Shown here piece by piece: positions 2,980 to 55,508 of a stretch of 64,000 nucleotides of DNA. The first letter of the stretch is position 1. Every line of letters starts with the position of its first letter. The stretch spans positions 56,074 to 120,073 of the forward strand of contig DCDG01000018.1 in assembly GCA_002316315.1 (NCBI GenBank), given 5' to 3'. The notes under the pieces are model-generated. The model was not told where the DNA came from, did not search any database, and saw only the letters and a program-made list of their open reading frames with translations. The translations under genes were made by a program, and so were the position numbers. The DNA is from Candidatus Aminicenantes bacterium UBA1061. Lineage in GTDB: Bacteria; Acidobacteriota; Aminicenantia; Aminicenantales; Saccharicenantaceae.

Positions 2980-3057
2980 CGTTTTATTTCCTTCAACTGT
3001 CAGTAATATGTCTAGTCTGTATTTTTAATCAGTCATCAAAGCAAATAAACTTGTATT

Positions 3058-5893: not shown

Positions 5894-6304
5894 TTATTTC
5901 TCCAGACCCTCCAGATACTTTTCGTAATCGGCGGCCTTCATCAGATTATTAAGTTCTGATTTATCCTTTAGTTTTAATCTTAAAATCCAGCCCTGGCCAT
6001 GCGGGTCGCTATTAATCAGCTCAGGCGTTTGAGCCAGATCCTGGTTAACCTGAACAACTTCTCCTGTTACCGGTGAATAAATATCAGAAACAGATTTAAC
6101 CGACTCAACCGTAGCCAACGTCTGATGAGCCTCAACGGCTTTACCACTATCAGGCAGATCAACATAAATTATATCGCCCAGCTGCTTTTGAGCAAAATCG
6201 GTGATACCAAGGATGGCTTCCTCGCCCTCAACTTTTAACCATTCATGGTCTTGACTGTAATAAAGATTCTCAGGGTACATCATATCCTCCTTTTTTATTT
6301 TCAC
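5894..6304 (-). CDS. gcvH: Glycine cleavage system H protein
   Basis: 136 aa. Lipoyl-lysine motif VESVKSVSD. Located between gcvT and gcvPA. Confidence 0.85.
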   Translation of the reverse strand: MKIKKEDMMYPENLYYSQDHEWLKVEGEEAILGITDFAQKQLGDIIYVDLPDSGKAVEAHQTLATVESVKSVSDIYSPVTGEVVQVNQDLAQTPELINSDPHGQGWILRLKLKDKSELNNLMKAADYEKYLEGLEK

Positions 6305-6318
6305 TGTTTTTATTAAAT

Positions 6319-8867: not shown

Positions 8868-10862
8868 TTGCGGGTCAAAGTGCAACTTGTTAGCCAAATA
8901 AATTTTGTTATAATTAGAATCACTATGTACCAGACCAAAAAGATACTGCGTGAAAAAATTGAAGACAGACTTAAGCTCGAATGGCCAGTTACAGCTGAGG
9001 ATATAGAGCTAACCAGCACGCCTGATGAAAAGCTGGGAGACCTGGCGCTATCTTTAGCTTTTCCCTTAGCCAGGAAACTCAGAACCAATCCCCGGACGAT
9101 AGCCGCCCGGGCAGTAGAATTATTGTCCGGGCTGGAAGGAGTTGAACGGATCGAAGTGGCCGGAGGCGGCTATATTAATCTTTTTCTTGACCGTCAATCA
9201 TTTTTCGATCAAAAATTCAAAAATTTAGATAGAAGCGGGCTGGAACCAGAAGAGAAAAAAATCATTGTTGAGCATACTAATATTAATCCTAACAAGGCAG
9301 CTCATGTCGGTCATTTGCGCAATGCCTGCCTGGGCGATACCTTAGCCAGATGCCTCCGTTATAAAGGTGAACAGGTTGAGGTTCAGAATTATATTGATGA
9401 CACCGGTGTGCAGGTGGTCGATGTCGTTTTCGGCTTGATTGAACTCGAGAAAAAAACCTTAGCTGAACTGGAAAAAATGACGGATAAATTTGATTATTAC
9501 TGCTGGGATCTTTATACCCGGGTTTCCCGCTATTTAGCCGACCATGAGTCAGCCAGAAACCGAAAGGCAGAAATACTTAAAAAAATTGAGCACGGCCAGT
9601 CACCAGAAGCTGATTATGCCTACTTTGTTTCGAGGCGAATTTTACGGGCACATCTAGCCACGATGAGCCGGTTAGATATTACCTATGATGTCCTCCCCTG
9701 TGAAAGCAGTATCCTAAGGCTGAAATTCTGGGAAAAAGCTTTTGCCAGGCTGAAAGAAGCTGGAGCCATCTATTATTCGACCGAAGGCGAAACAGCTGGC
9801 TGTTGGGTGATGAAACTTGAAGATAATGAAGAGCGGGAAAAGATTATCGTTCGGTCGGACGGCACACTGACCTATGTCGGCAAGGATATAGCCTATCAGC
9901 TCTGGAAATTTGGCCTGCTGGGCCAGGATTTTTATTATGAACCGTTCGCAACCACTGGAGACCGGACTATCTGGATTTCATCAGGTGAGCCGACTGACTA
10001 CGATGTTCATTTTGGCGGCGGAAGTCAGGTTTACAACGTGATTGACGTCCGTCAGTCTTATCTTCAGAAAGTCGTTGTCCAGGGACTAAGAGCGCTCGGT
10101 TATAAGCAGGAAGCTGCCAAGAGCATCCATTTTTCCTATGAGATGGTCGCCCTCTCCCCCCGCAGCCTGTCAGAAATAAAAGTAGAGCTGTCTGACGAAG
10201 ACAAAGAACGCACTTTTGTCGAGGTTTCGGGAAGAAAAGGTCTCGGGGTGAAAGCTGACGATTTAATAGACAGGCTGGAGGAAAAGGCACTGGCTGAGGT
10301 AGATAAAAGGAACCCTGACCTCAAGGAAGCCGCCAAAAAATTAATAGCCAGTCAAATTGCCGGGTCAGCAGTCAGGTATTTTATGCTGAAATATGCCAGA
10401 AATTCGCTGATCGTCTTTGATTTCGATGAAGCTCTGAATTTTGAGGGAGAAACCGGGCCTTATTTGCAGTATACCGCGGTCAGGCTAAAAAGCATTTTCC
10501 GAAAATTCGAAGAAAAAAAAGGAATGACGGGCCAGGAATTATTCACCAAAGTAGCTGACAGCCAATTCGATCTGAGTCAATTGAAGCCTGAAGAAGCCCG
10601 CGACTTCTGGGAACTGGTTGTCTACGGGTCTTTACTTGATGAAGAAGTTTTGAGAGCCATCGCTACACTGGAATTTGCCGGCCTGGCCAAGTTCACTTTT
10701 AACCTCTGCCAGAAAATAAATGGCTATTATCACCGTTACTCGGTCCTGGCTGAGCAAAATGAAAAGCTAAAAACCTTTAGATTGAAAACCATCTATTTCG
10801 CTCATCAAAGGCTCAACCAGGCTCTTGACCTACTTGGAATTCAGGTGCCGGATAAAATGTAA
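8868..10862 (+). CDS. argS: Arginyl-tRNA synthetase (class I; true start probably the internal Met at about 8925)
   Basis: HVGHLRNACLGDT matches the HIGH motif and YIDDTGVQ is typical of ArgS. The ORF is 664 aa. Confidence 0.7.
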   Translation: MRVKVQLVSQINFVIIRITMYQTKKILREKIEDRLKLEWPVTAEDIELTSTPDEKLGDLALSLAFPLARKLRTNPRTIAARAVELLSGLEGVERIEVAGGGYINLFLDRQSFFDQKFKNLDRSGLEPEEKKIIVEHTNINPNKAAHVGHLRNACLGDTLARCLRYKGEQVEVQNYIDDTGVQVVDVVFGLIELEKKTLAELEKMTDKFDYYCWDLYTRVSRYLADHESARNRKAEILKKIEHGQSPEADYAYFVSRRILRAHLATMSRLDITYDVLPCESSILRLKFWEKAFARLKEAGAIYYSTEGETAGCWVMKLEDNEEREKIIVRSDGTLTYVGKDIAYQLWKFGLLGQDFYYEPFATTGDRTIWISSGEPTDYDVHFGGGSQVYNVIDVRQSYLQKVVVQGLRALGYKQEAAKSIHFSYEMVALSPRSLSEIKVELSDEDKERTFVEVSGRKGLGVKADDLIDRLEEKALAEVDKRNPDLKEAAKKLIASQIAGSAVRYFMLKYARNSLIVFDFDEALNFEGETGPYLQYTAVRLKSIFRKFEEKKGMTGQELFTKVADSQFDLSQLKPEEARDFWELVVYGSLLDEEVLRAIATLEFAGLAKFTFNLCQKINGYYHRYSVLAEQNEKLKTFRLKTIYFAHQRLNQALDLLGIQVPDKM

Positions 10863-10921
10863 CTTTTTACCTCTATTAAAATTTTTTGATATGATTATCG
10901 AGATTATGGAGGAGGTGGCAG

Positions 10922-11848
10922 ATGATAGAAACTGAACACCTGCAAAAGAAATATGGAGATCTGGTAGCTGTTGAGGATCTCAGCTTTAAGGTTGATTCCG
11001 GCCAGATCTGGGGCTTGCTCGGACCCAATGCGGCTGGCAAAACCACCACCATGAGAATTCTGACTGGCTTCCTGCCAGCCACCAGCGGGCGGGCAATCGT
11101 GGCTGGCTATGACGTTTTTGAACAGGCTGAGAAGGTGAAAAAAGAAATTGGCTATCTACCAGAAACAGTTCCTCTTTATCCGGAAATGACAGTAGAAGCT
11201 TATCTTGGCTTTGTAGCCGAAATTAAGCAGGTACCAAAAACCAGTAAAAAGGCAGCTATCGACCGAGCCGTAGAAATTACTGGCCTACCAGCTGTCAGGA
11301 AAAGGCTTGTCAAGAATATTTCCCGAGGTTACCGGCAGAGACTGGGCCTGGCTCAGGCCTTAATTCACAATCCCAAAGTCATCATCATGGATGAACCAAC
11401 CATCGGCCTTGACCCGGCTCAAATTGTCGAAATCCGGCAGTTAATCAAATCTCTCAGAGGCGAACACACCATCATGCTCTCGACTCATATTCTGGCCGAG
11501 GTTACTCAGATTTGTGATGGCGTGGTCATAATCAATGAAGGTAAATTGATGGCTTCTGGCCGCCTGGATGAATTAACCTCAGCTTATCGGGAGAAAGACG
11601 GCGTTTATCTCAGGCTTAAAAAAGCTGATGACGAAGTTTTAAATTTTTTAGGCGGGCTGCCAGGGATAGAAAATGTCACCAGAGAAGGAGAAGAAATCCG
11701 ACTGGAATGGGACAGGAATAACGATCGGCGGGAAGAAGTGGTTAAATTTTGTCTTGATAAACAGCTTGGCCTTCTCGAGATGCGTTCCTTGGCCCTAACT
11801 ATTGAAGAGCTGTATTTGAGAATTGTGTCAGGAGGGATAGAACAATGA
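10922..11848 (+). CDS. ABC transporter ATP-binding protein (GldA-like)
   Basis: Walker A GPNAAGKTT, the ABC signature and Walker B are present. It is the first gene of an ATPase-permease-GldG-like-DUF4340 cluster. Confidence 0.8.
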   Translation: MIETEHLQKKYGDLVAVEDLSFKVDSGQIWGLLGPNAAGKTTTMRILTGFLPATSGRAIVAGYDVFEQAEKVKKEIGYLPETVPLYPEMTVEAYLGFVAEIKQVPKTSKKAAIDRAVEITGLPAVRKRLVKNISRGYRQRLGLAQALIHNPKVIIMDEPTIGLDPAQIVEIRQLIKSLRGEHTIMLSTHILAEVTQICDGVVIINEGKLMASGRLDELTSAYREKDGVYLRLKKADDEVLNFLGGLPGIENVTREGEEIRLEWDRNNDRREEVVKFCLDKQLGLLEMRSLALTIEELYLRIVSGGIEQ

Positions 11849-36791: not shown

Positions 36792-37045
36792 TTTAAAAAA
36801 TCCAGAAAAGGCGCAGTTTATAAGACGGGGACAGCCATCAGACTGAAGCCGCACTTCAGCCCGAAGAAAGCACACCGGCGGCGAACCAAAAGCAAGAGCC
36901 TTCCTCTGGCCAACACCTTTGAGCTACCTGATCTCGCCTTCAAAAAGATAAAAATAAGTCAGCCCTTTGGCTGTCCTGATTTCCCGGGCATCTACTACCC
37001 GCACAGCCAGCTCGACCACTTGTCCGGCAATTCCCTGAGGTGAGC
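36792..37045 (-). repeat. Copy B of the dnaE2 3' terminus (about 250 bp; reading frame kept except for one stop)
   Basis: About 88-90% nucleotide identity to 52653-52920. Minus-strand translation gives ...GQVVELAVRVVDAREIRTAKGLTYFY..., matching the DnaE2 C-terminus. Confidence 0.8.
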
Positions 37046-37124
37046 GATTGGGAGAAGCGGCCTTCAGCTTAGAGCTAATGGTAAGCTATCTCCTGGGCCG
37101 TTCAGCATCTTTTTAGCCTCTAAC

Positions 37125-39901: not shown

Positions 39902-40200
39902 TTCAAAAATGAACTTATTAGGGTGATAAAAAAGTGTGAAGGAAGGCGCAGTTTATAAGGCGGGGGCAGCTGTCAGACTGAAGCCGCACTTCAGCCCGAA
40001 GAAAGCACACCGGAGGTGAGCTAAAAGCCAGGGCCTTCTTCTGACCTACGCCCTCAACCTGCCCGCTCTCATCTTCGAAAAGACAAAAATAAGTCAAGCC
40101 GCGCGATGTTCTGATTTCCCGGGTATCCATTACCGGGATAGCTAGCTCGGTCATCTGACGGCACAATTCCTTGAGATGTTCGATCCGCAGCGGCGGACAC
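39902..40200 (-). repeat. Copy C of the dnaE2 3' terminus (about 300 bp; ORF 39918-40217 intact)
   Basis: Encodes ...REIRTSRGLTYFCLFEDESGQVEGVGQKKALAFSSPPVCFLRAEVRLQSDSCPRLINCAFL, which is 85-90% identical to the DnaE2 C-terminus. Confidence 0.8.
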
Positions 40201-40353
40201 CAGCGAGCCCTAAGCAAACTGCTAGCTATCCTACGCCGACTTATTTTTCTTTAAGCCATTATCTTATTGATTATTAACAAATTGTGTTAGCCCAACCCGC
40301 ATTTAAATATATAAGCTCCTCCCCTACAGCACAGGGGCCGGCACCAGCAATTG

Positions 40354-41526
40354 TTATTTCTTCCAGGTAGCCTGATAACAGCAAATATACTGATAACCTT
40401 CTTCGTCCTTCTCAATAGTGTATATTTTGCCGTTTTTTGCAAGAAAGGCTTGGCCTGTCATCTCACAGCGCGCGATAAGCTTCCCTTCAGCACTGAAGAT
40501 ATCCACCAAATAAGAATCCTTAGCCTTACCTTTCTCATAAGTCCTGACATAGAGCCGGTTCTCCTCATCAACAAAGAAACCAGAGAAAGCAGGATAGTTA
40601 GCCGGAAAAACTACCATCTCTTTCAAATTCATTCCCGGTGTCTCCGGTATCTGCTTGAGCATTTCTTCTTTATCTTTCTGACTTATAGACTGCGGTCGAT
40701 ATTCTTTTCGCACTATTTTGACCAGCTGGCCTTCCGGATTGAAATATTTAATTTCATAAGAGGAACTACGGCCATAAATAATATTTCCACTTCCATCCAG
40801 GCAATAATCATAAGTGATCGTAAAGGGATTAATCTTGCCGCCACCCAGGGGCGAAGCCATTAGCAGCGTATCAATTTTAAAAAGCTGGTTAAAATCAGCA
40901 TCATATTTAGCAATAGTATAGGCTATCGAATTCCCTTCCATCCCCATTTCGCAACCTACATATTGACCGCCGCTGTCAATTACTTCCAACATAGCCAGTT
41001 TCTTAGCGTAAGAAACTTCTCTCGTCATCTTACCTTCAAGGTCGGAATAAATCAGTTTTCGGTTACCACTATCATTTATCATCAGTTCGCGGTCAGATAA
41101 GAGCTGGAGTCCAGACGGAGCGTTCCACTCGCCCGGGCCCTGGCCTTCTTGGCCAAATTCTTTTAGCTTTTTGCCATTTGGATCGAAGACATTGACCTTT
41201 TTTGCCTTAAAATCCAGAACAAAAATCCGGCCGTCAGCCGCAACATCGGCTCCAGCTACAACCCCGAAGGCGCTTCCTCCTTGTTCCAGCTTTCCGATGG
41301 TAATTTCTTTGGTTAAAATCAATCTCTGAGAGCCAGAAGGTTTAGCTTTATTCTCGATTATCTGGACATCAGCTTTATCAGCCAGCCTGATAACGGCCTT
41401 ATCTGCTACGGAAAAAGCCGATACAGAAAAAACTGAAATCATGGCTACAAGGAAAACTGGCACATACATAAACGATCTGTGTGTAAATTCTTTTTTTCTC
41501 ATCTTCCTCCCCTTGCTTATCAACAT
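40354..41526 (-). CDS. NHL-repeat / 6-bladed beta-propeller secreted protein, paralog 2
   Basis: Signature GQEGQGPGEW, signal peptide, 390 aa. Confidence 0.7.
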   Translation of the reverse strand: MLISKGRKMRKKEFTHRSFMYVPVFLVAMISVFSVSAFSVADKAVIRLADKADVQIIENKAKPSGSQRLILTKEITIGKLEQGGSAFGVVAGADVAADGRIFVLDFKAKKVNVFDPNGKKLKEFGQEGQGPGEWNAPSGLQLLSDRELMINDSGNRKLIYSDLEGKMTREVSYAKKLAMLEVIDSGGQYVGCEMGMEGNSIAYTIAKYDADFNQLFKIDTLLMASPLGGGKINPFTITYDYCLDGSGNIIYGRSSSYEIKYFNPEGQLVKIVRKEYRPQSISQKDKEEMLKQIPETPGMNLKEMVVFPANYPAFSGFFVDEENRLYVRTYEKGKAKDSYLVDIFSAEGKLIARCEMTGQAFLAKNGKIYTIEKDEEGYQYICCYQATWKK

Positions 41527-41541
41527 TTTAAAATGGCTGCC

Positions 41542-42531
41542 TTATTTAGAGCGACCTGCGATAAAAGGCATCATAAATAAGCCCGGGTCCATTCCTTCTT
41601 CTTCCTTTTTCTTCTTTATAGCTCTTATGTCACTTTTAGTGAGTGCTCCTCCGCTGGATTCAGTATCTTCAACTGGATTAAGTTCTGTAACCTTTTTGTT
41701 TTCTATCTTGCCCATAACATAAAGACAATAGGGGTTGTTTGGTGCTTTTTCCAAAGCTAACTTAGCATAGTTCTCAGCCTCATCAATTTTCCCGGCTTTA
41801 AGAAGGGTAAAAGCTAAGGAATAAAGATATCTGGTGTTTTCTGATTTTGAAAGAGCTTCTTTCCAATAATACTCTGACTCCTGATATTTTCCCCTCCTGA
41901 AGAAGGCAGTCGCCAGGTCGCGGAAATACACTTCATTATCCTTATACTTGCTTTCCAGACCAGAGTCATCTTTTAAGGCAATCATTGACCAATTCTCTTC
42001 CTCCCCTGAGGTCCATAACTCTAAAAAATCTTTCTCTTTGACAAAAATATTTTTCCCTAAAAGAGGATCAGCTAAGACAATCGAGTCCTTTTGGTATCCA
42101 ACCACCAGTCGGTAATGTCCTTTATCGATTTCTTTTGAAGCTTTCTGAAAAACCACCACCGGAACTCCCTTTGAGATTAGCTCCTTTAAATCATTCAAAT
42201 TACCCTTAAAAGAATATGACTTCAGCCCTTTTGATTGAGGATAAAAAACCATCTCAGAGAGCTTCATCACTTTTTCCTTTTCGTCAAAAACTCTGGCAGC
42301 AACCATTTCCTGTTTTTCATCTAAGCCATAAAAATGAAGCATCATCTGCAAAACCGCTGGCCCGCACCACCCGTTTTTCTCCTGCTTATAAAATTTCATG
42401 TTTTTTATAACATTGGCTTTTTTAGGAATGGATTCAGCCTGATAGAAATAGGTATGAGAGGCACATGAAGAAAAAACGCTTATCACAAAGATTAGTAGCA
42501 AATTTTTTAGCCTTTTGTTTTTACCTTTCAT
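41542..42531 (-). CDS. Lipoprotein with a C39-like papain-fold peptidase domain (Peptidase_C39_2 type) and C-terminal TPR repeats
   Basis: Lipobox VFSSC. Candidate catalytic Cys in NGWCGPA and candidate His in KGHYRLVVGY. TPR-like repeats follow (YWKEALSKSEN..., AENYAKLALEKAPNNPY). It lies directly upstream of NHL paralog 2 on the same strand, separated by 15 bp. Confidence 0.55.
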   Translation of the reverse strand: MKGKNKRLKNLLLIFVISVFSSCASHTYFYQAESIPKKANVIKNMKFYKQEKNGWCGPAVLQMMLHFYGLDEKQEMVAARVFDEKEKVMKLSEMVFYPQSKGLKSYSFKGNLNDLKELISKGVPVVVFQKASKEIDKGHYRLVVGYQKDSIVLADPLLGKNIFVKEKDFLELWTSGEEENWSMIALKDDSGLESKYKDNEVYFRDLATAFFRRGKYQESEYYWKEALSKSENTRYLYSLAFTLLKAGKIDEAENYAKLALEKAPNNPYCLYVMGKIENKKVTELNPVEDTESSGGALTKSDIRAIKKKKEEEGMDPGLFMMPFIAGRSK

Positions 42532-43064: not shown

Positions 43065-43318
43065 TTAAAAGCTATGGAGAAAGGCACAGTTTATAAGGCG
43101 GGGGTAGCCGTCAGACTGAAGCCGCACTTCCCCTCTAAGAAAGCACACCGGAGGCGAGCCAAAAGCCAGAGCCTTCCTCTGCCCCACGCCCTCAACCTGC
43201 CCGCTTTCATCTTCAAAAAGATAAAAATAAGTCAGGCCGCGCGACGTTCTGATTTCCCGGGCATCTACTACCCGGACAGCCAGCTCAACCACCTGTCCGG
43301 CAATTCCCTGAGGTGAGC
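43065..43318 (-). repeat. Copy D of the dnaE2 3' terminus (ORF 43065-43292 intact)
   Basis: Encodes MVELAVRVVDAREIRTSRGLTYFYLFEDESGQVEGVGQRKALAFGSPPVCFLRGEVRLQSDGYPRLINCAFL. About 90% nucleotide identity to the dnaE2 3' end. Confidence 0.8.
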
Positions 43319-43438
43319 GATTGGGAGAAGCGGCCTTCAGCTTAGAGCTAATGGTAAGCTATCTCCTGGGCCGTTCAGCATCTTTTTAGCCTCTAACTTA
43401 TTGATTATGAATGATATCCGCTGGCCCGACCCCATTTA

Positions 43439-43716
43439 GATGGCAGGTTGAAAGATAACCCGGCAGCCAGATCTTTTGACCTTCACCTTGATTTCATGAT
43501 ACTTGCCGTCCCAGCTTTCCGGAACAGGATAACCAAGAACGTAATAGGCACCGGTCAGAGTCTCAATTTTCTCAATATGGTCGGGAGCAGCATAGATTGT
43601 CCCGGTGTACTGACCTCCAGTCTTCCAGGCTATCTCTCGAAGAGAAACGGTTCCCCTTGGATGAATAGATTCCTGAATTATTAGATATGTATTATCTTCC
43701 GTATCAACCGGAAAGC
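43439..43716 (-). pseudogene. Fragment (about 280 bp) of a VWA-like gene paralog, homologous to 47237-47516
   Basis: About 88% nucleotide identity to the C-terminal coding part of the 46807-48468 gene. No start codon, and it is fused directly to other repeat fragments. Confidence 0.65.
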
Positions 43717-44039: not shown

Positions 44040-45023
44040 ATGATGAAAGCTACTAGCCTTACCCACAAGGACAAATTGTGTTTTCTTCAGGGTTCTGTTA
44101 AGAAGCGCAAAACATGTGCGATTGGACTGATAGCCGTGCTGTATATTCTTACTCTTATGTCATGTGTATCACCAAAACCGTCCGACAAGACAAATATTCT
44201 GCCTGAATTTGTGGCAGCCGCTTATGGAGATAAAAATCTAGTTTCTAAGGAGTTGCGCGGCTGCACGTTCGTAATTTTTATCAATTCTACAGAGACCTAT
44301 CACATCGATCTCCTCGAGAAAGTATACAGAGATTATTCAGACGACGTCAATATTATCGCTTTTGTTGGCCAAATTTCCCTTCTCCCACTCTTGCACGACA
44401 GATTCCCGAGAGCCTGGATCATAGATGATAGCCAACAACTTTTCGTTGAAAAGTTTGATGCTAGATCTTGTTGCGGCCGATTTTTCATCTATGATTCGAG
44501 CAAACAATTAATCGCAGCTGGGAACAATACAGTATTCTATGAAGAAGGAACTAGATCAATTTTACAAAGAACCGTGGACCATATCAGTTTCGATATTTCA
44601 GTTCTGATACCCGAACAGAGCGTATCAGATAGTCCCGTGTTTCGAGAATTATGGGATCGATTACGTGTCCAAGAAAAGAGTACATATGTAATATTTATGC
44701 TGTCTGATATTTGTGGCTCCTGCCCCGTTGCCAAGACAATTTCGGAATTGTCAGCAGCATTAATCAGGCAACTAGATACCATTGGAGTAGCATTTCTCTT
44801 CTCGTCAGATTTTTCAGATATCGATATCCGGAACTTCAAAGTAAAATGGTCAGTTCCCTGGCCGTGTATACGTGCCGATGGCGATCTGGCTCTTAAATGG
44901 AATGATTTAATTCATGATTTTAGTCGAGAAGAACTGAATCAGATCCTTCTGCTTGTGGATTCGAGAGGAAAGTTGCTGGCCATAAACCAGGCCGCTTTTA
45001 AGAAACTGGTAGAGGTGAAATAA
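44040..45023 (+). CDS. Tandem thioredoxin-fold (TlpA/redoxin-like) lipoprotein
   Basis: Lipobox LTLMSC. The second domain carries CxxC (DICGSCP). The first domain is redoxin-like with a single Cys (RGCTF). It is separated by 1 bp from the downstream NHL paralog 3. Confidence 0.55.
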   Translation: MMKATSLTHKDKLCFLQGSVKKRKTCAIGLIAVLYILTLMSCVSPKPSDKTNILPEFVAAAYGDKNLVSKELRGCTFVIFINSTETYHIDLLEKVYRDYSDDVNIIAFVGQISLLPLLHDRFPRAWIIDDSQQLFVEKFDARSCCGRFFIYDSSKQLIAAGNNTVFYEEGTRSILQRTVDHISFDISVLIPEQSVSDSPVFRELWDRLRVQEKSTYVIFMLSDICGSCPVAKTISELSAALIRQLDTIGVAFLFSSDFSDIDIRNFKVKWSVPWPCIRADGDLALKWNDLIHDFSREELNQILLLVDSRGKLLAINQAAFKKLVEVK

Positions 45024-46110: not shown

Positions 46111-46237
46111 TAATAAAGCCTATATAGCTAAGATAAAAGTTAGGATAAAGGAATATGGCAACACTTGGAGGAAAAGAAGAGAAACTATTTGGCGCTATGT
46201 TAGAATGCGACCCCAAAATTATTGATAGGAAGATAAA

Positions 46238-46450
46238 ATGAAAAGAGTCATCTGGGTGATCGGAGTAATAGGCTTTTTATCTGTGAGTCTGATCATCCCA
46301 ACGCATGCCGTGGTGAATACTCCGCTGAAATGCTCATCTTTGGTAGAATGCGGCGATTGGTTAGAGTGCCCGGAGCGAGGACGCGAAATTCAGCGCTGCG
46401 TACTCGATTGCGAAAATGGCCCAATCGTTTTTTGCCCTGGTCCAATGTGA
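46238..46450 (+). CDS. Small secreted cysteine-rich peptide (70 aa, 8 Cys in the mature part)
   Basis: Signal peptide, then a Cys-rich region of about 45 aa (KCSSLVECGDWLECPERGREIQRCVLDCENGPIVFCPGPM). Lies immediately downstream of NHL paralog 3. Confidence 0.4.
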   Translation: MKRVIWVIGVIGFLSVSLIIPTHAVVNTPLKCSSLVECGDWLECPERGREIQRCVLDCENGPIVFCPGPM

Positions 46451-46806
46451 TAATGAAGAACCTCAACGAGGCCCTGGTAATTCCTTCAGGATGTACTTAT
46501 AACTGTAAGCGCGCGGGCTGAAAAGATAATCGCTGATCTTTTCGGCCAAGCATTGAGGCCACAGCTTGATTGAGTGAAAACATAGGCATAGCCAAAGAAG
46601 GTCTTCTTATAAAAACAGGGTGTTAATATTTTCATTTGACCCGAGCATGGATGTGTATACATAAACCAGTCAAATACCCACAGGTTTTTGAGCTCCTCTA
46701 AATACAGGATTAAGATCGGTGCAGCGATCAACAATCCGATGATCTTTTTAATACTTCTTGTGAAGGCTAGACAAGAGCCATCGCCTTTGTGGCAATTACA
46801 TCTTTT

Positions 46807-48468
46807 TCAATTTTTATCAGGCCCGGGGATGATGACAGAAGCTGCCGCCACAGCTGACTTGCCTGTCTCCATATTCCTTATGACCAGCCGGCACTTGTAA
46901 GTTCCTGGTTTAGCTGAAAGTTCACTCTGAATGGAGAGAGGTTTCTGGCGATACTCAGGTTTCGTTAGATCAAGCTCAATACGCCGGCTGTCAACTATCT
47001 GATCAAGCTGGTCAAAGAGAAGACTGACTGCTTCCACTCTCGGACCGACAACTTCCCCCAGCTCCTCCAACCGAAGCCTCGCTATGATCTGAATATTATT
47101 GGGTGGCGCAGGCGATTTAACCTGAGCCTCCATATCAAACCGTAACGGTTCGCCAGAGAGTGGCCTGGGTGAAAGAGCCACATCGACCAGGTGAATTTTT
47201 TTCTCCAGCTCTGAAAAGGAAGAAAATGGCTTCTGATTGAAATAGCCAGGTTGAAAGATAACCCGACAGCCAGGTCTTTTAACCTTCACCTTGATTTCAT
47301 GATACTTGCCGTCCCAGCTTTCCGGAACAGGATAACCAAGAACGTAATAGGCAGCGGTTAGAGTCTCAATTTTCTCAATGTGGTCGGGAGCAGCATAGAT
47401 TGTCCCGGTGTACTGACCTCCAGTCTTCGAAGCCATCTCTCTCAAGGAAGGTATTCCCTTTGCGGTCTCAGGGTACTCCAAATAGAAATTATCTTCAGTA
47501 TCAACGGGAAAGACTGAGGCATTAGCATCAGCTAACTGACGGCAGAGCTGTTCATATTCCCGGCCGAGATGAGCATTGCCATTATCAACATAGGCACCGC
47601 GACCTATATAGGCCGGGTGGATGCCGTTAGAATAAAGAAGAATGATTTTCTTCCCCTGAATATAACGCAGGGCCTGGGCGAGAGACTGCATTGACCAGAT
47701 AAAGTTAGAAGATACGATCTTGCCCGCCATTACATCATTGGACATCCGCCCAGGGCCCGAGCGTGAATATGAATCATAAGCAGCTCCGGAAGTTGCGATC
47801 TGGAATTGCGAATCAAAGAAGCGGCTCGGAGCCAGTGGCATAATATCTTTAGCCTGAATAGACTCAATCGCCCGTCGTGCTCCTTCCCGGTCACGGTCAG
47901 GCTGATGCAGAACATTGAGAACGCGGCCACCAGAAAAAGTTAAAACCCCAACCAGCATGTCCGGCTCAAGCTCTTTCTCAAGAGAGCGAAGCGCTGCCTC
48001 CCGGGCTAATTTAAATCCTCCCTGATCAGTAAACACTAAATCAAATAAATAGAGGAAGATGCGGTTTAGAAGAGGTTGCGGGGCCGGTACCTTCTCTTCT
48101 GGCTTATTTTCGACGACAGGCTCGGGTCCTTTCTTTTCAGCCGGGAGAGACATGGTGTGATTCTCAAACTCGGTCAGCAGCTTCTCCTTACCATTATCAT
48201 AAAGAATAAAGTCTTCTTTGCTCAGGTCAGTCACCGGCTGGCCTTTATCATCAGTCACCATGACATAGATGAGCTTTCTGATGACACTGACCTGGTATTG
48301 CTGGTTATCCCTGACCTTTTCCTGCCCTTGCCCCATGTTTGGCAGCAAGGAAACGAAAACGCCAACAACCAGGAAGGCCACAAGAATAATTACGATCAGC
48401 GAGCTTGAACGCCTATTCCCGGCCGAAGCTTTCCCTCTTGATAAAGCCCTGAAGACCTCAAGCTTCAT
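46807..48468 (-). CDS. Membrane-anchored VWA-like protein (resembles the VWFA-related Acidobacterial-type domain family)
   Basis: N-terminal transmembrane segment. A beta-sandwich N-domain (VMVTDDKGQPVTDLSKEDFILYDNGKEK) is followed by a VWA-like region (LVGVLTFSGG...). 553 aa. Confidence 0.45.
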   Translation of the reverse strand: MKLEVFRALSRGKASAGNRRSSSLIVIILVAFLVVGVFVSLLPNMGQGQEKVRDNQQYQVSVIRKLIYVMVTDDKGQPVTDLSKEDFILYDNGKEKLLTEFENHTMSLPAEKKGPEPVVENKPEEKVPAPQPLLNRIFLYLFDLVFTDQGGFKLAREAALRSLEKELEPDMLVGVLTFSGGRVLNVLHQPDRDREGARRAIESIQAKDIMPLAPSRFFDSQFQIATSGAAYDSYSRSGPGRMSNDVMAGKIVSSNFIWSMQSLAQALRYIQGKKIILLYSNGIHPAYIGRGAYVDNGNAHLGREYEQLCRQLADANASVFPVDTEDNFYLEYPETAKGIPSLREMASKTGGQYTGTIYAAPDHIEKIETLTAAYYVLGYPVPESWDGKYHEIKVKVKRPGCRVIFQPGYFNQKPFSSFSELEKKIHLVDVALSPRPLSGEPLRFDMEAQVKSPAPPNNIQIIARLRLEELGEVVGPRVEAVSLLFDQLDQIVDSRRIELDLTKPEYRQKPLSIQSELSAKPGTYKCRLVIRNMETGKSAVAAASVIIPGPDKN

Positions 48469-49911: not shown

Positions 49912-50030
49912 ACCATCTTCTCTTCTGAACTCCATTGTCTAAGCTTCATCCTGACACCTCCTTACTCAGTATAATCTCTATCTCTTTGAGGTGTCCACCT
50001 CCTCAGGGGGTCAGTATAACCTCTTATACT
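49912..50030 (-). mobile_element. Solo left-end remnant of the IS3-family element (inverted repeat, 5' UTR and first ~12 codons of orfA)
   Basis: About 90% identical to 59950-60070. The reverse complement begins ATGAAGCTTAGACAATGGAGTTCAGAAG, encoding MKLRQWSSE as in orfA at 59993. Confidence 0.7.
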
Positions 50031-50409
50031 TAGCACTGAGCTTGTAACGTTTAAGCACATAGCGGACAGTAGAAGGCTTAACCTCAACTCCCCGTTCGCG
50101 AAGTATCCTGGCCACCCGGTCTCGGCCAAAGCCAGTCTTCTTCCTCTCGGCTATGATCAGAGCTTCCACCGCCGCTGACGTTCTCCGAGGCGAGCGTTTT
50201 GGCCTTCGAGACAGCGGCTTCAGCCCAGCCTCTCCTCTCTCCTCCCACCGCCTTACTACCTTCCTCACTGTCTTGCGAGTCGTTCTAAACACCCTGGCTA
50301 CTTCTGAGATATTCCCACTCTCCTCATAGGCCTTAATCACTGCCTTCCTGGCGAATTCCACTGACCCCTTGAAAAGCTCACAGTAACTGAGGTATAAAGA
50401 TTCTGTCAC
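50011..50409 (-). CDS. IS481-family transposase N-terminal (HTH) fragment; the DDE integrase domain is missing
   Basis: The pattern ...GLKPLSRRPKRSPRRTS...STVRYVLKRYKL is typical of IS481-type transposase N-termini. The ORF stops after 132 aa, and its last codons run into the IS3 end remnant. Confidence 0.5.
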   Translation of the reverse strand: MTESLYLSYCELFKGSVEFARKAVIKAYEESGNISEVARVFRTTRKTVRKVVRRWEERGEAGLKPLSRRPKRSPRRTSAAVEALIIAERKKTGFGRDRVARILRERGVEVKPSTVRYVLKRYKLSAKYKRLY

Positions 50410-50690: not shown

Positions 50691-50918
50691 ATGAAAAAAG
50701 TTGTGTCTGTTCTTCTCTTGATTCTCATTTTTATGCGGATCACCATGAGTATTTTAAATTTCACAACAAAAGTCTACGCTTCAGCACCGTCTATTTTCGG
50801 CACGACAACCAGGGGCGGGAGCTATTATGATCAGCTTAGATGGTACCTTCAGGGCCGGTGGATGTACGGAGATTACTATTGCATTGGTGAAGCATCTAAT
50901 TGTTCCATAGTCAACTAA
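50691..50918 (+). CDS. Small secreted peptide (75 aa; Tyr/Gly/Cys-rich C-terminal part)
   Basis: Signal peptide, then ...GGSYYDQLRWYLQGRWMYGDYYCIGEASNCSIVN. Lies 40 bp upstream of NHL paralog 5. A TTGACA-containing conserved motif sits upstream. Confidence 0.35.
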   Translation: MKKVVSVLLLILIFMRITMSILNFTTKVYASAPSIFGTTTRGGSYYDQLRWYLQGRWMYGDYYCIGEASNCSIVN

Positions 50919-50960: not shown

Positions 50961-52055
50961 ATGAGGAAAATAGGATTAAAAGGTTTACTAACATTTGTCA
51001 TTTATCTTCAGATGGTGAGTATCTGCTTCTCGCAACTAGTAAAATTAGATAAAAAAATACCGATAGAAGAAAACGCACTTATTGTCTCTGGCTCTTTTGC
51101 CCTGTTACCGAATGGAACTTTCATTTTTACCGATATTAGAGATGAGAATAACCAGATTAAAATTATCAATGACAAGGGGAAGATAATAAAAGCCTGGGGT
51201 AAAATGGGACCAGGACCAGATGAGTTCAGTGGTCTGGCAGAAATCGATTATCAGAATCCTTACTTAGCCATTATGGATGCAGGCAAAAGATGCATTCATA
51301 TTTTTGAGACAGACCTCGATAAATTCAGAAAAATAGGAGACATCCTCGCCTGGGAGGCAACAGATTTTATTAAATTATATGATAAAAGCGTTTTAATGGG
51401 CGGGTATATCACTTCGCCGAAAGGAAAGGGCTACATAGTATTCGCGAGAGATTTTAATGGAGGTAATACGCAATATATTCTTCCCTTTGAATATAAATAT
51501 GGAGAGCGTTCCTTAAGTGAACATCAAAAGACCAGAGAAGAAGTTTCAGGTATATCATCTAGAGATTATGCTGACATTTATGAAGATGACCTCTTTTATA
51601 TAAGCGATGTGAGAGTCAGGGTGATTAAGACCAATCTCAAGACCAAAAAGATAGAAATCCTCGGGAAAGATCCAAAGAATTTCAGAGCGCTGGTGATGGA
51701 TAAGAAAACCAGGAACGAATTACTGCAACCGCAAACTGGCAAGGGGAAAATGCAAGAGATTTTAAATAAATTTTCTTTTGTAACTCGTATTTTTGTTGAC
51801 AAAGACTATTTTGGCCTGATCTTTTTGAACCGGGAAAAAAAGGTCGGCAATGAACTCTATTTTGTGGCCTATGTTCAAATTTATGATCACTCTGGAAAGG
51901 TGTTGTATGAAGGTCAGCTGGAAGACTTTTATACTGAAGAGAAGATTTCTCCACTTGTTTATCAAAAAGGGACAGGCTGCTTGTATTTGCTTGGTATGAC
52001 CAGCAGTGAACTCGGCGTAAAATATGTGATTTATAAATATCAGATTAAATTATGA
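50961..52055 (+). CDS. NHL-repeat / 6-bladed beta-propeller secreted protein, paralog 5
   Basis: Signature GKMGPGPDEF, signal peptide, 364 aa. Confidence 0.65.
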   Translation: MRKIGLKGLLTFVIYLQMVSICFSQLVKLDKKIPIEENALIVSGSFALLPNGTFIFTDIRDENNQIKIINDKGKIIKAWGKMGPGPDEFSGLAEIDYQNPYLAIMDAGKRCIHIFETDLDKFRKIGDILAWEATDFIKLYDKSVLMGGYITSPKGKGYIVFARDFNGGNTQYILPFEYKYGERSLSEHQKTREEVSGISSRDYADIYEDDLFYISDVRVRVIKTNLKTKKIEILGKDPKNFRALVMDKKTRNELLQPQTGKGKMQEILNKFSFVTRIFVDKDYFGLIFLNREKKVGNELYFVAYVQIYDHSGKVLYEGQLEDFYTEEKISPLVYQKGTGCLYLLGMTSSELGVKYVIYKYQIKL

Positions 52056-52550
52056 AGAGGCTTATTTATTTTTTAGCGGCAGTAATCGTCCTTTATCTGA
52101 TCAGCGTAATTTATAAATATCAGGTAACACCAATATTGATTAATTTCCCGGTCGATGAACTGGGAATAATCCCTAAAAAGAAGTCAGGTTGAATCTTGTG
52201 CTGTTCTTTTCAAAAAAAATTGCACACCGTGTGTTCAACATATAGTAAATTATTTAAACGAGGCACCAGAAAGTATTCAGGTTGTGGGAATAGTCAAGGA
52301 GGAAGAACTAAAGTTTTTAGATGAGATTAGAGAAACAACTGGGGCGAAATTTCCAATTAAAAGCATAAAAAAATGGAAGAAATACAGACCAAATTATGCT
52401 CCCACTTTATATGGGGTTGGCTCTGATGGTAAAATATATTTTGTCATCGCTTGTACTGCCCTCGAAGAGAATTATTGGCGGGCATATGTTGATGAATTTA
52501 TGAGAAAAGCTGAATATTTGCTACTAAAACCAAGTTTAAAATCAAATTGA
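52052..52550 (+). pseudogene. Frameshifted membrane-anchored thioredoxin-like (CxxC) gene
   Basis: An ATG overlapping the NHL5 stop opens a 46-aa transmembrane-anchor ORF ending at about 52190. A different frame then continues as ...SCAVLFKKNCTPCVQH... through ORF 52284-52550, resembling the second domain of the 44040 redoxin. The frame change lies in or near A5-A8 homopolymers. Confidence 0.45.
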
Positions 52551-52652: not shown

Positions 52653-55508
52653 TCAAAAAGTTGATAAGAAGGCACAGTTTATAAGGCGGGGGTAGCTGTC
52701 AGACTGAAGCCGCACTTCAGCCCGAAGAAAGCACACCGGAGGTGAGCCAAAAGCCAGAGCCTTCCTCTGGCCCACACCCTCAACCTGCCCGCTCTCGTCT
52801 TCAAAGAGATAAAAATAAGTCAAGCCCTTGGCTGTTCTGATTTCCCGGGCATCTACTACCCGCACAGCCAGTTCGACCACCTGACCGGATAATTCCCTGA
52901 GGTGAGCAACTCGCAGCGGCGGCCGCCGGCCATTCAGTAGCTCCAGCGGGTCGCCAGCCGGCAGGAAGCCCAGTTTTTCCAGCTGAAGTTTTTTCTTCTC
53001 CTCATCATTGATGTCTGCTACCTCGACTTCGGAGACACCATGAAAATAGTGCAGAACCTGCTGGCTGCGGTTTGGTTCAAGCGAATCAAGAGCTCCAGCC
53101 TGGATTAGAGCCAGCAGGTCGCTCTGGCCTGGTTTTACCCGTCCGAGGAAGTCTTCCACCGACAAATAGACGCCATCTCTCTCCCGCTCGTTGATGATTT
53201 TTTCTAGGCTCCTGGCGGTTAGATTTTTAATGGAACCAAGGCCAACTCTAATCGCCTTCCCTTCGACCTCAAAGCGATAACCGCTGCGGTTGACATCCGG
53301 GCCAAGGATCGTTAAGCCCAGCCTCTTAGCTTCCTCAATGTATTCCGGAAGCTGGTAGTAACCACCGGCCGCATTAAGCACAGCCACCATATAGACCAGA
53401 GGATAATGAGCTTTAAGATAAACGGCTTCATAAGCCATGAGGGCATAAGAGGCGCTATGAGCCCGGTTAAAAGAATAGGCCGAAAATTTTTCCATCTTCT
53501 GCCACAGCTCCTGAATCTCAGCCTGAGCATAGCCGCGGCTTTCGGCCCGGTCAAAGAATTTCCGGCGCAAAGCCTCATCCACCCGGCGCTTTTTTAGCTG
53601 ACGGCGCAAAAGTTCTCCTTCTTCCGGCGGGAAACCAGCCACCCTTTCTGCCACCTGCATCACCTGCTCTTCATAAAACATCAGGCCGCCGGTTTCGGGG
53701 AGAATCTTAGCCAGCAGCGGGTCTGAAGGAGAAGCCCTCCCCTCGCGTCGCCTCAGAAAGGCTTCTTTCATCCCGCTTTCAGTCGGACCAGGTCTGATTA
53801 AAGCCAGAGCATGGATTAAATCGTCCAGGTTTTCCGGCTTCATCCGGCGGAGGAGATTCATCATGGCCGGGCTTTCCACCTGAAAGCAGCCAATTGTTTT
53901 CGCTTCGCGGAGAAGAGTAAAAGTCTGGCGGTCAGCAGGCGGAAGATACTCAAGATGAAGAGTTTTTCTGGTCTCGGCTATAGCTGTCAGCCCGCGGGTA
54001 GAAAGGAGGTCAAGCTTAATAAGCTGGAGTTCTTCCACCGTGTCCCGGTCATAATGGCACATGAGGAGTCCTTTGGCTGATTTTTCAAGCGGCAGGTAGC
54101 GGTCAACTGGCGCCGGGGTCAAAATTACACCCCCAACATGGAGGGAAATCTCGGCGAAAACACCGTCCAGCTCAGAAGCCAGTTTCCAGATGTCCAGGCA
54201 GCCGGCCTGAGGCGGCATCTGCCGCAAATAATCAGGCTCGGCGAACATCGGCACCCGCTTGCTCATCGTCCTGGCTTCTTCCGGCGAGATGCCAAAAGCC
54301 CGGGCAGTTTCATAAAGGGCCGAGCGCGCCCGGTAATTCTTCAGGCTGCAGACATAAGCTGCACCGGTTTCTCCTGTCCCGTAACGTTTGAGTACATACT
54401 CCAGGACTTCATCCCGGCGGCTCGAGTCAAAGTCAAGGTCAAAGTCAGGTGGATCAGGCCGGCCGCGGTTTAAAAAGCGTTCAAAATAAAGGCCATACTC
54501 CACCGGATTAAGACGGGAAATGCCCAGAAGATAGGCCAGATAGGAAGAAGCTCCCGAGCCACGGAGATTGTGGTAGATGCCCTGGCGGCGGGCAAATTCC
54601 ACCACGTCACAAACAACAAGAAAATAAGGGGCAAAACCGCTCTCTTCAACCACCTGAAGCTCACGCACCGCCCGGGCCCTTTCTTCCCAGCTGAGATTTT
54701 TCAGCCTGGATAACCGGTCATTAATCACCTGACGCAGGGAAACAGGGAAAAGATCAGGCGGAAGAGGCGGAACAATATTTTTAAAAGAGAAATCTATTTT
54801 TTCGATAAGCTCCTGGTGGCGGCGAAAAATTGGTTTGACCCGGTCGCCATATTTTTTTAAAGCAATTTTTTCCTGCTCCGGGCCAAAATTTCTGAGGACC
54901 GGCGAAAGCCTTTTAAGTTCGGGCGGATAAGGAATTTTTTTCTCTATCGTCCGAAGGAGGACCAGGCGCGGCGCACTGGTCAGAAATTTCAGCGGCTCAG
55001 TCCAGAGAAGAGGAAACCCTGTTTTCGCTGAGAGCCACTCGCCGCCAGGCAGGTTGTTAAGACCGCAGCCAAGATAAAGATCATCCGGTGCCCGCTCCCC
55101 AATCTGGCGAATAAAACTCACCCACTCTTCGAGTTCCACTTCGGACACAGGCAGCTTTTCCGGCAGGATAAAAATGGTAGCGAGTCCATCCGGTTCCAGA
55201 AACTCCCGGCGATTAAAAATCTCAAGCAACCGGTGATAGCCCTTTTTCTCTTTGATGAGAAAAACATAGCGGCTGCCCCTTATGGGAAAATCCAGTTCAA
55301 GCTCGCAGCCAAAGACTGGCTTAAAGCCGCGCCCCTCGCTCAGGGCCTGCCACTTACCCCAGCCATAAAAAGCAGCCACATCGGTCAGGGCAGCTGCCGG
55401 GAGGCGATTTCTCTCTGCAAATTGCACGAGTTCTTCCAGGGTCAGGCTGCCTTCTCCCCGGCTAAAGGTTGAATGAACTCTTAAAGGGATAAACATTTTT
55501 GGACTCAC
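52653..55508 (-). CDS. dnaE2: Error-prone DNA polymerase III alpha-like (DnaE2/ImuC-type)
   Basis: 951 aa with a PHP N-terminal domain, a Pol III alpha core and a C-terminal OB region. It is the last gene of a lexA-dinB-dnaE operon and overlaps dinB by 4 bp. Confidence 0.65.
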   Translation of the reverse strand: MSPKMFIPLRVHSTFSRGEGSLTLEELVQFAERNRLPAAALTDVAAFYGWGKWQALSEGRGFKPVFGCELELDFPIRGSRYVFLIKEKKGYHRLLEIFNRREFLEPDGLATIFILPEKLPVSEVELEEWVSFIRQIGERAPDDLYLGCGLNNLPGGEWLSAKTGFPLLWTEPLKFLTSAPRLVLLRTIEKKIPYPPELKRLSPVLRNFGPEQEKIALKKYGDRVKPIFRRHQELIEKIDFSFKNIVPPLPPDLFPVSLRQVINDRLSRLKNLSWEERARAVRELQVVEESGFAPYFLVVCDVVEFARRQGIYHNLRGSGASSYLAYLLGISRLNPVEYGLYFERFLNRGRPDPPDFDLDFDSSRRDEVLEYVLKRYGTGETGAAYVCSLKNYRARSALYETARAFGISPEEARTMSKRVPMFAEPDYLRQMPPQAGCLDIWKLASELDGVFAEISLHVGGVILTPAPVDRYLPLEKSAKGLLMCHYDRDTVEELQLIKLDLLSTRGLTAIAETRKTLHLEYLPPADRQTFTLLREAKTIGCFQVESPAMMNLLRRMKPENLDDLIHALALIRPGPTESGMKEAFLRRREGRASPSDPLLAKILPETGGLMFYEEQVMQVAERVAGFPPEEGELLRRQLKKRRVDEALRRKFFDRAESRGYAQAEIQELWQKMEKFSAYSFNRAHSASYALMAYEAVYLKAHYPLVYMVAVLNAAGGYYQLPEYIEEAKRLGLTILGPDVNRSGYRFEVEGKAIRVGLGSIKNLTARSLEKIINERERDGVYLSVEDFLGRVKPGQSDLLALIQAGALDSLEPNRSQQVLHYFHGVSEVEVADINDEEKKKLQLEKLGFLPAGDPLELLNGRRPPLRVAHLRELSGQVVELAVRVVDAREIRTAKGLTYFYLFEDESGQVEGVGQRKALAFGSPPVCFLRAEVRLQSDSYPRLINCAFLSTF

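Follow-up and report, generated by a model that had tools for sequence, protein, structure and literature searches.

A family of six-cysteine secreted peptides encoded in a conserved operon with thioredoxin-like and NHL propeller genes in Aminicenantes and Acidobacteriota

In a 64,000-nt stretch of DNA from Candidatus Aminicenantes bacterium UBA1061 (contig DCDG01000018.1, positions 56,074 to 120,073 of the forward strand; the whole of this stretch is referred to below as the window), a small open reading frame (ORF) at 46238-46450 encodes a cysteine-rich peptide with an export signal. This ORF is a real gene, whose mature part is under strong purifying selection, and it is the first to be noticed from a peptide family that as yet has no name and for which neither Pfam nor NCBIfam contains a model. 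The members share an invariant framework of six cysteines, and their genes stand in a conserved operon behind genes for a thioredoxin-like (Trx-like) protein and an NHL propeller, in Aminicenantes and Acidobacteriota. Judging from comparative sequence data, the two partner proteins probably fold or handle the peptide. To the more specific reading, in which the peptide is cargo matured by a periplasmic, split Trx–NHL pair, we assign a probability of about one half. That a Cys-rich exported product can have an oxidoreductase dedicated to it is already known; the peptide family and the Trx-like/NHL/peptide operon are new.

A small secreted-peptide gene under purifying selection

An earlier annotation of the window, made without database searches (the original prediction), had placed a 70-amino-acid (aa) ORF with a Sec signal at 46238-46450, directly after a Trx–NHL3 gene pair. 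All of this was found: there is an ATG-initiated frame of 70 codons on the forward strand; its product begins with MKR, followed by a 17-residue hydrophobic stretch and PTHA-VV (read from the sequence), with a predicted signal peptidase I cut after Ala24; and the ORF starts 127 nt past the NHL3 propeller gene, which itself begins 1 nt past the Trx-like gene. The claim of eight cysteines in about 45 mature residues has to be corrected to six in 46.

Codon-aligned comparison of orthologues gave, for the mature region, a proportion of nonsynonymous differences (pN) of 0.06-0.12 versus a proportion of synonymous differences (pS) of 0.54-0.85. The signal part diverges much faster than the mature part while staying hydrophobic (33% identity). 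The intergenic region between the NHL3 and peptide genes is divergent, and the GGAG/AGGA site is the only part of it that is retained, in 5/5 orthologous loci. None of 100 shuffles of the window yielded a signal-like ORF with at least six Cys. The gene is thus real, because its mature part is under purifying selection, its Shine-Dalgarno site is kept, and nothing comparable arose in the shuffles. A crude screen of all 45-110-aa ORFs revealed no other in the window that combines a signal-like start with at least four Cys; the codon-usage score of the peptide ORF is modest, yet highest in the annotated frame. Default pipelines had been expected to miss the ORF, which is not the case: gene calls made by NCBI, JGI, ENA and Logan list the identical peptide as a 'hypothetical protein', on at least 23 contigs. 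In database records the neighbouring propeller bears the name Candidatus Saccharicenans sp. (Aminicenantes), and the window has its counterpart in contig DAOROR010000007.1 of assembly GCA_035441505.1.

The features of the module and of the second module described below are collected in Table 1. The hairpin between the convergent peptide and VWA genes may be a terminator, though it has no U-tract; the evidence for it is weak, with a whole-fold z-score of just -1.6 and no terminator called by a consensus scan after the peptide gene.

Table 1. Features of the two peptide modules in the window (positions are those of the window)
Feature	Position	Strand	Remarks
Trx-like protein, membrane-anchored, two tandem thioredoxin folds, 327 aa	44040..45023	+	AlphaFold2 model, Foldseek
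NHL3, exported six-bladed NHL / DUF5128 beta-propeller, 361 aa	45025..46110	+	PF17170
Shine-Dalgarno AGGAAG	46227..46232	+	5 nt 5' of the peptide gene ATG; read from sequence
Peptide gene ORF	46238-46450	+	ATG start, 70 codons; product MKRVIWVIGVIGFLSVSLIIPTHAVVNTPLKCSSLVECGDWLECPERGREIQRCVLDCENGPIVFCPGPM
Predicted signal peptide, residues 1-24	46238..46309	+	MKRVIWVIGVIGFLSVSLIIPTHA; n/h/c-region anatomy, read from sequence
Predicted mature 46-residue mini-protein and stop codon	46310..46450	+	VVNTPLKCSSLVECGDWLECPERGREIQRCVLDCENGPIVFCPGPM; six Cys, C-x5-C-x5-C-x9-C-x3-C-x7-C
12-bp hairpin, 8-nt loop	46516..46547		Between convergent peptide and VWA genes; RNA fold of 46445-46570
pep2, 75 aa, signal-like N-terminus	50691..50918	+	2 Cys (C-x7-C) near C-terminus; 42 nt upstream of NHL5
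NHL5, divergent DUF5128-like propeller, 364 aa	50961..52055	+	PF17170 E=3e-4, under family cutoff
Disrupted membrane-anchored gene	52052..52550	+	CTPC and thioredoxin-like '...PTLYGVGSDGKIYF' motif; three-frame translation; directly 3' of NHL5

A family with an invariant six-cysteine framework

Homologues of the peptide were sought in 5.8 billion proteins, then with a HMMER profile in 1.84 billion cluster representatives, and then with a profile of 13 members. The first of these searches returned two diverged orthologues (79% and 63% identity), and two further ones were read from the contexts of Trx-like homologues; after the profile searches the family comprised approx. 25 protein clusters. 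The original prediction had been staked on conservation in related genomes, which for 46238-46450 took the form of these diverged orthologues and, once tandem copies read off contigs were included, of an alignment of 33 sequences.

All 33 members are 69-92 aa long and consist of a signal-like N-terminus and approx. 45 further residues. The framework C-x5-C-x5-C-x8/9-C-x3-C-x7-C is present in every one of them. The six Cys and one Gly (Gly48) are invariant, and the Leu after C1 and the Pro after C6 are nearly so. Besides Cys, conservation is limited to Gly, Pro and Leu positions, with no conserved Ser, Thr, Lys, Trp or Tyr; there is therefore no candidate site for another modification, and the peptides have the look of a product that carries disulfides only. 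With pI values of 4.1-7.8, the mature peptides range from acidic to neutral; they contain much Gly, Ser and Asn and are neither cationic nor amphipathic, and their C-termini vary (…GPM, …YQG, …GGK, …PRE). Tandem paralogs share 68% of their signal residues and 38-40% of their core residues (Cys excluded), while for orthologues the corresponding values are 33% and 68%.

Such a kept signal, with a fixed Cys framework, hypervariable loops and tandem arrays, recalls conotoxins, defensins, Kazal domains and knottins; the present family differs from these in its bacterial origin and in the lack of any sequence or fold match, and to our knowledge its Cys spacing fits none of their frameworks. A scan of the 33 members against Pfam and NCBIfam gave no significant match, and the window peptide matched no family in PADLOC or PHROGs, no plasmid record (tblastn) and, as a profile, no PDB sequence below E=4.4. 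An AlphaFold2 model of the peptide, built from 23 sequences, contains three short strands (mean predicted local distance difference test score, pLDDT, 67; 72-83 in the Cys-rich part); a Foldseek search of the PDB with this model returned nothing below E=4.8, to be read with its pLDDT of 67 and the weakness of Foldseek on such short chains. Nothing was found in the published literature on DUF5128, NVEALA, Aminicenantes NHL repeats, or the combination of NHL, oxidoreductase and precursor peptide.

A type IV pilin-like N-terminus was considered and ruled out: in MKKY-TLIA... position -1 is Tyr, not Gly, and position +5 is Ala, not Glu. The matches to PF07963 are weak only (E>=0.05) and concern 4/33 members.

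Gene order at the peptide loci

The surroundings of the peptide genes were compared at the window and at the loci L001-L006, L015, L017, L019, L020, L021, L023, L024, L025 and L028 (our numbering). In each of the 13 distinct contexts with upstream sequence, the family peptide gene or genes lie 0-127 nt downstream of a propeller of the same NHL subfamily, and a gene with a Trx fold is found 5' of the propeller wherever the contig extends far enough. There are two versions of this arrangement: (i) in a Saccharicenans-type clade (the window, L001-L006, L015, L017 and L023), a Trx-like gene (302-327 aa) is followed by the propeller gene (340-385 aa) and one peptide gene, and (ii) in a distant clade (L020, L021, L022, L024, L025 and L028), a Trx-like protein of 171-194 aa comes first, followed by a lipoprotein propeller of 349-358 aa, by 2-5 peptides in tandem, in some cases by a redoxin, and by a protein of approx. 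600-620 aa. The arrangement persists in two distant lineages at a peptide identity of only 23-35% to that of the window.

At 90% identity, the rpoC gene of L021 falls into one cluster with entries from Pyrinomonadaceae and Chloracidobacterium, which suggests that the distant clade is a Pyrinomonadaceae-like lineage. The thioredoxin domain encoded by the first gene of its operons has lost the second Cys, and two of the loci, L024 and L025, carry a separate 166-aa CGFC redoxin (TlpA-like, PF08534 E=8e-6). The last gene, present in L020, L021, L024, L025 and L028, encodes a secreted helical protein with no family match (0 in PADLOC and PHROGs).

Operons with 4-5 tandem peptide genes occupy 7891-13477 of L024 and 4398-9624 of L025. 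Both are adjoined by a set of divergent genes, for an extracytoplasmic function (ECF) sigma factor, a zf-HC2 anti-sigma factor, a DUF4097 protein and a product of 274-283 aa; L024 and L025 are close relatives, and their shared linkage is therefore not independent evidence.

Genes that flank the module differ from locus to locus and often encode transposases (IS91-like, DDE_Tnp_1, IS3, Mu/IstB). Neighbourhoods so unrelated, with transposases among them, indicate that the three genes move as a unit, and the flanking transposase genes are consistent with a mobile module. The convergent VWA gene of the window (46807-48468) is not kept beside the module elsewhere.

A scan of GTDB representative genomes yielded one locus only, L019 (WJKS01000026.1, 4457 bp), in a genome binned as Candidatus Aenigmatarchaeota; the search patterns were specific to the window clade, and the scan therefore says little about the true distribution. 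This contig carries an IS3-type transposase gene, an ORF of 555 aa in which the Trx-like and propeller parts are fused, and a peptide gene (P0010) with a frameshift. The fusion resembles a deletion that truncates the second thioredoxin fold. L019 is a decaying copy of the module, on a contig that is probably bacterial and mis-binned.

The Trx-like and propeller proteins

The Trx-like protein matched no Pfam or NCBIfam family at E<=0.1 (Redoxin, AhpC-TSA, Thioredoxin and ResA models included); its orthologue in L017 reached E=0.016-0.028 at best against thioredoxin family models, and a profile of the Trx-like protein gave a marginal match to the ResA sequence in the PDB (E=0.16). The 'Trx' label of the original prediction nevertheless stands, on structural grounds. 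An AlphaFold2 model (pLDDT 70.8, lower in the C-terminal domain at 57-85, and built on an alignment of 4 sequences only) shows an N-terminal membrane helix (residues 9-41), followed by two beta-alpha-beta domains of thioredoxin type. A Foldseek search of the PDB with this model returned 305 matches at E<=1e-3, among them 3hdc, ResA, TlpA-like proteins, StoA, SdbA and CcmG (probability 1.00, E about 5e-6).

In the N-terminal fold there is no CxxC, but E85, Y87, H88 and C145-G-R are invariant. Residues 225-228 (about 44712-44723) of the C-terminal fold form a CGSC motif, which the model places after strand 215-221 and before helix 229-242, at the start of helix 1. All orthologues keep a CxxC there, in the form of CGSC, CGAC, CMAC, CIAC or CTLC, and C225 and C228 are invariant in six orthologues. 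The C-terminal half is also homologous to the 171-194-aa first gene product of the distant-clade operons. The model thus supports a thioredoxin fold with a conserved CxxC.

The closest structural matches, the TlpA/ResA/StoA/SdbA family, resemble the Trx-like protein in being anchored in the membrane by the N-terminus and in having a CxxC where helix 1 begins. They differ in that the present protein is unrecognised by sequence models and has a duplicated fold, the first copy of which lacks CxxC; moreover, their clients are cytochromes, Sco and spore proteins, whereas the client here would be a dedicated mini-protein.

The 'NHL' label of the propeller was likewise confirmed. NHL3 matches PF17170 (DUF5128) at E=1e-12 (48.4 bits, cutoff 22.9), and its profile found, among PDB sequences, the NHL domains of TRIM71, Thin, TRIM2 and Brat (E=1e-24 to 1e-10), as well as peptidyl-alpha-hydroxyglycine alpha-amidating lyase (PAL; 3fvz, E=1.3e-5), SOQ1 (E=1.2e-4) and NHLRC2 (E=1.6e-3). 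In 6/7 lineages the NHL3 start lies 1 nt past the Trx-like stop. Neither the Trx-like protein nor NHL3 nor NHL5 matched any family in PADLOC or PHROGs.

The original prediction had linked small ORFs to NHL paralogs in general, and this broader link did not hold. The propellers of the two clades are orthologous along their entire length (E about 1e-17 to 1e-26), and NHL3 aligns from end to end with those found before the peptides of L021, L024 and L025 (E about 1e-17). The four other DUF5128 paralogs of the window are matched by NHL3 locally only and do not match the distant-clade propellers, so that NHL3 alone among the window paralogs belongs, by these alignments, to the peptide-associated subfamily. 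When the window paralogs were checked for an adjacent small secreted Cys ORF, just one besides NHL3, namely NHL5, was found to have one.

A C39-like secreted cysteine peptidase with TPR repeats (41542-42531, reverse strand; PF13529, PF03412; weak PA2778-family match) lies immediately upstream of another DUF5128 propeller gene (40354-41526, reverse strand), which is thus a second propeller paired with an enzyme of peptide-processing type.

A proposed role for the module

All three module products carry a signal peptide, a lipobox or a membrane anchor, and their meeting place is therefore outside the cytoplasm. We propose that the peptide precursor is exported by the Sec route and that its 24-residue signal would then be removed, leaving a 46-residue acidic mini-protein whose six invariant Cys most likely form three disulfides. 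The peptide gene would be the cargo gene of a three-gene module in which the Trx-like and NHL3 genes are putatively coupled in translation (stop, 1 nt, start). Together, the Trx-like protein and NHL3 would constitute, in the periplasm, a split counterpart of the Trx–NHL architecture that is fused in NHLRC2 and SOQ1. In this counterpart the unfolded peptide would be bound by the propeller, while its disulfides would be formed or shuffled by the CxxC domain. The same machine would serve 2-5 tandem, diversified peptide paralogs in related Acidobacteriota. Our guess, from the hypervariable loops, is that the folded peptides bind or inhibit a variable target.

In NHLRC2 and SOQ1 the Trx-like domain and the NHL domain pack stably, with the redox motif in the cleft between them, and disulfide exchange with a client has been proposed (PMC6107167; 10.1101/2021.03.16.435614). 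The likeness to the present pair lies in the combination of a thioredoxin fold of CxxC type with a six-bladed NHL propeller, outside the cytoplasm (in SOQ1, in the thylakoid lumen). There are also several differences: the window proteins are two separate polypeptides, the Trx protein has two folds, there is no DsbD-like C-terminal domain, the propeller is of DUF5128 type and is matched better by TRIM-type NHL domains (3e-24), and a candidate client is encoded alongside, whereas none is known for NHLRC2 or SOQ1. It is a tentative idea, and on balance a doubtful one, that the new Sec-exported six-Cys family, with its tandem arrays in Acidobacteriota, represents the clients of a split bacterial machine of NHLRC2/SOQ1 type that are still encoded next door to it.

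The original prediction had cast the peptide as a partner or substrate of the redoxin/NHL pair. Comparative genomics lends this suggestion strong support, through the synteny in 13/13 contexts and the invariance of the six Cys. Several observations weigh against the role proposed here. The putative interaction of Trx-like protein, propeller and peptide is read from synteny. In L021 and L028 the first gene encodes a Trx-like protein with a single Cys, and there is no CxxC redoxin on the available contig, so that a dedicated CxxC may not be essential. Compared with other NHL domains, NHLRC2 and SOQ1 appear no nearer to NHL3 by sequence, and the similarity of NHL3 to them would be generic. Proteins of TlpA/ResA type are usually reductants, not oxidants. 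The peptide model is of moderate confidence only (pLDDT 67), the family is small (approx. 25 clusters among 5.8 billion proteins) and is known for the most part from metagenomic contigs of short length, and no outer-membrane export route is encoded at the loci.

Alternative explanations

In the first alternative, the propeller would have the peptide as its small subunit, in stoichiometric amounts, or as a tightly bound ligand (for instance an inhibitor or regulator), and the Trx-like protein would be an assembly factor only, as in methylamine dehydrogenase (MADH). The heavy subunit of MADH is a beta-propeller. The strict adjacency of propeller and peptide genes (0-127 nt) and the periplasmic location of all module products would agree with this, and a parallel is provided by MauD, a CXXC thioredoxin-fold factor that is required for the disulfides of the small MADH subunit (bioRxiv 10.64898/2026.03.05.709764). 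Both systems would thus pair a CXXC thioredoxin-fold protein with a small Cys-rich periplasmic polypeptide that partners a beta-propeller. The peptides described here have 6 Cys instead of 12, however, and the propeller is a six-bladed NHL protein rather than a seven-bladed one; there is no conserved Trp, Tyr or Lys for a cofactor (in particular no Trp for tryptophan tryptophylquinone, TTQ) and no MauE- or MauG-like gene. It would also be odd for a fixed subunit to occur, beside one propeller gene, as 2-5 tandem, diversified paralogs whose cores are 38-40% identical. Several divergent cores per propeller gene, behind a shared signal, would be expected of cargo that one machine handles rather than of a fixed subunit, and we regard the subunit explanation as rather unlikely.

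In its strict form, as a quinoprotein small subunit of TTQ or cysteine tryptophylquinone (CTQ) type, the candidate was rejected, there being no invariant aromatic residue and a Trp in the window clade only.

The peptides could also be Sec-dependent, disulfide-stabilised antimicrobial or signalling molecules comparable to bacteriocins or pheromones, with the Trx-like protein as oxidase and the propeller as an immunity protein, receptor or export accessory. Tandem arrays with a kept signal and hypervariable cores on a fixed Cys scaffold would suit such molecules, as would the island-borne, mobile character of the module and the pair of ECF sigma and anti-sigma genes that, in L024 and L025, stands beside the operon in divergent orientation. 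A precedent is the sublancin cluster (sunA-sunT-bdbA-sunS-bdbB), in which a small exported Cys peptide is encoded together with its own thiol-disulfide oxidoreductases (PMC4336743). The likeness ends with the Cys-containing exported peptide and the oxidoreductase in the operon: sublancin has a leader of double-glycine type, which an ABC transporter/peptidase cuts off, and its cluster also contains an immunity gene and an S-glycosyltransferase. The present loci have none of these, and the window peptide instead has a Sec-type signal and a propeller partner.

The framing of the peptides as bacteriocins or as precursors of ribosomally synthesized and post-translationally modified peptides (RiPPs), with which the original prediction had recommended a database comparison, found no support. 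In Pfam and NCBIfam, none of the 33 members matched a family of bacteriocins or of RiPP precursors, their mature parts are acidic to neutral and Gly/Ser/Asn-rich, and at no locus is there an exporter, an outer-membrane component or any obvious immunity gene of the small membrane type. Like their phylum, the producers are presumably diderm, and Sec export alone would therefore stop in the periplasm. The N-terminus is Sec-like, the window clade lacks a GG ahead of the core, and no Pfam domain of a radical SAM, LanB/C/M or YcaO-type maturase occurs among the called neighbours of the loci. Taken together, this makes an antimicrobial or signalling function unlikely. The C39-TPR protein (41542-42531) was discarded as a candidate leader peptidase: there is no GG site, and its gene belongs to a different, repeat-bounded cassette, which is lacking in the strain variant L008 and at all other loci.

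A third alternative is adjacency without function, the small gene encoding an unrelated secreted protein that hitch-hikes with the Trx–NHL pair. In its favour, the putative interaction is read from synteny, and the family is small, with phylogenetically related members. We nevertheless consider it improbable, since the arrangement is kept at 23-35% peptide identity, in two distant lineages, and in differing neighbourhoods and mobile contexts.

It is very improbable that the peptide is a RiPP precursor and the propeller an enzyme, like the NHL-type PAL, that modifies its core: NHL3 does match PAL (3fvz, E=1.3e-5) and some orthologues end in Gly (…CPGYQG), but the match is many orders of magnitude weaker than those to non-catalytic NHL domains, the C-terminus is not conserved (conserved positions being only Cys, Gly, Pro and Leu), and no monooxygenase or other maturase is encoded at any locus.

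A second module in the window

A second small secreted ORF, upstream of NHL5, had been noted in the original prediction, and pep2 is indeed there, with the quoted C-terminus, two Cys and a signal-like start. Its codon-usage score is the highest of its three frames, though weakly so. It gave no match in Pfam, NCBIfam, PADLOC or PHROGs, a metagenome scan returned identical copies only, and tblastn found no plasmid record, these being searches that did not include a sensitive protein homology search. That pep2 is a gene is plausible. NHL5 is related to NHL3 at E=0.007 (BLASTP) and stands outside the NHL3 subfamily.

The region directly 3' of NHL5 encodes a membrane anchor and then, in another frame, '...FKKNCTPC...PTLYGVGSDGKIYF'. 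A homopolymer at 52205-52212 is A8 in the window and A7 in L008; the A7 version is a single frame of 166 codons with one in-frame TGA at codon 47 (about 52190-52192), which is present in both assemblies. The product did not match Pfam thioredoxin models, and its assignment to the thioredoxins is therefore based on motifs only. The gene could be a pseudogene, an assembly error, a case of phase variation or, least likely, one with a recoded stop. The second module consists of the same three kinds of parts in another order (peptide, propeller, CxxC protein), and its redoxin is disrupted in both assemblies.

Between NHL4 and pep2, a 132-aa helix-turn-helix ORF (50011-50409, reverse strand; HTH_28/29/32, N-terminal domain of an IS630-like transposase) with no adjacent catalytic domain is probably the remnant of an insertion sequence.

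Cassettes and rearrangements around the modules

A segment of approx. 300 nt from the 3' end of dnaE is present in four direct copies (36807-37106, 39942-40241, 43080-43379 and 52668-52967), which are 65-88% identical to the reference copy; the intact dnaE gene lies at 52653-55508 (reverse strand). They delimit three cassettes, with almost the same spacing in two cases (3135 and 3138 nt). Cassette A contains a DUF5128 propeller gene and a gene for a BNR protein, cassette B a DUF5128 propeller gene and the C39-TPR peptidase gene, and cassette C (9.3 kb) both peptide modules. Cassettes A and B are missing from the strain variant L008. There is no visible integrase at the cassettes, which look like the outcome of repeated insertion or recombination at the dnaE 3' end.

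The VWA gene (46807-48468, reverse strand; TIGR03436 acidobact_VWFA) contains a 216-nt fragment (47247-47462) that is duplicated with 92% identity at 43444-43659, just upstream of the Trx-like gene. This duplication suggests rearrangement around the Trx–NHL3–peptide module.

At other loci, mobile elements were found close to the module: L001 has C-terminal fragments of an IS91-like gene on either side of it (6269-6514 and 10335-10967), in L015 it is flanked by DDE_Tnp_1 (981-2297), and L023 carries a Mu-type transposase gene with IstB (1401-3830).

Implications

We know of no established recognition target or mode of action for the Trx–NHL architectures of NHLRC2 and plant SOQ1, of which human NHLRC2 is essential and linked to disease. 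If the proposed role of the module is true, Trx–NHL pairs would be dedicated devices for peptide binding and oxidative folding or disulfide editing, and the operons would offer a tractable genetic system for establishing what a Trx–NHL propeller recognises. They would also provide a bacterial, Sec-dependent, disulfide-rich peptide scaffold with variable loops, found in uncultured Aminicenantes and Acidobacteriota, whose members are potential inhibitors or binders. Were it wrong, a well-defined family of small proteins and a corrected description of the locus would still stand. Catalogues of small secreted bacterial proteins are poor, and the present family brings to them a clear signature, namely a six-Cys framework together with fixed gene partners.

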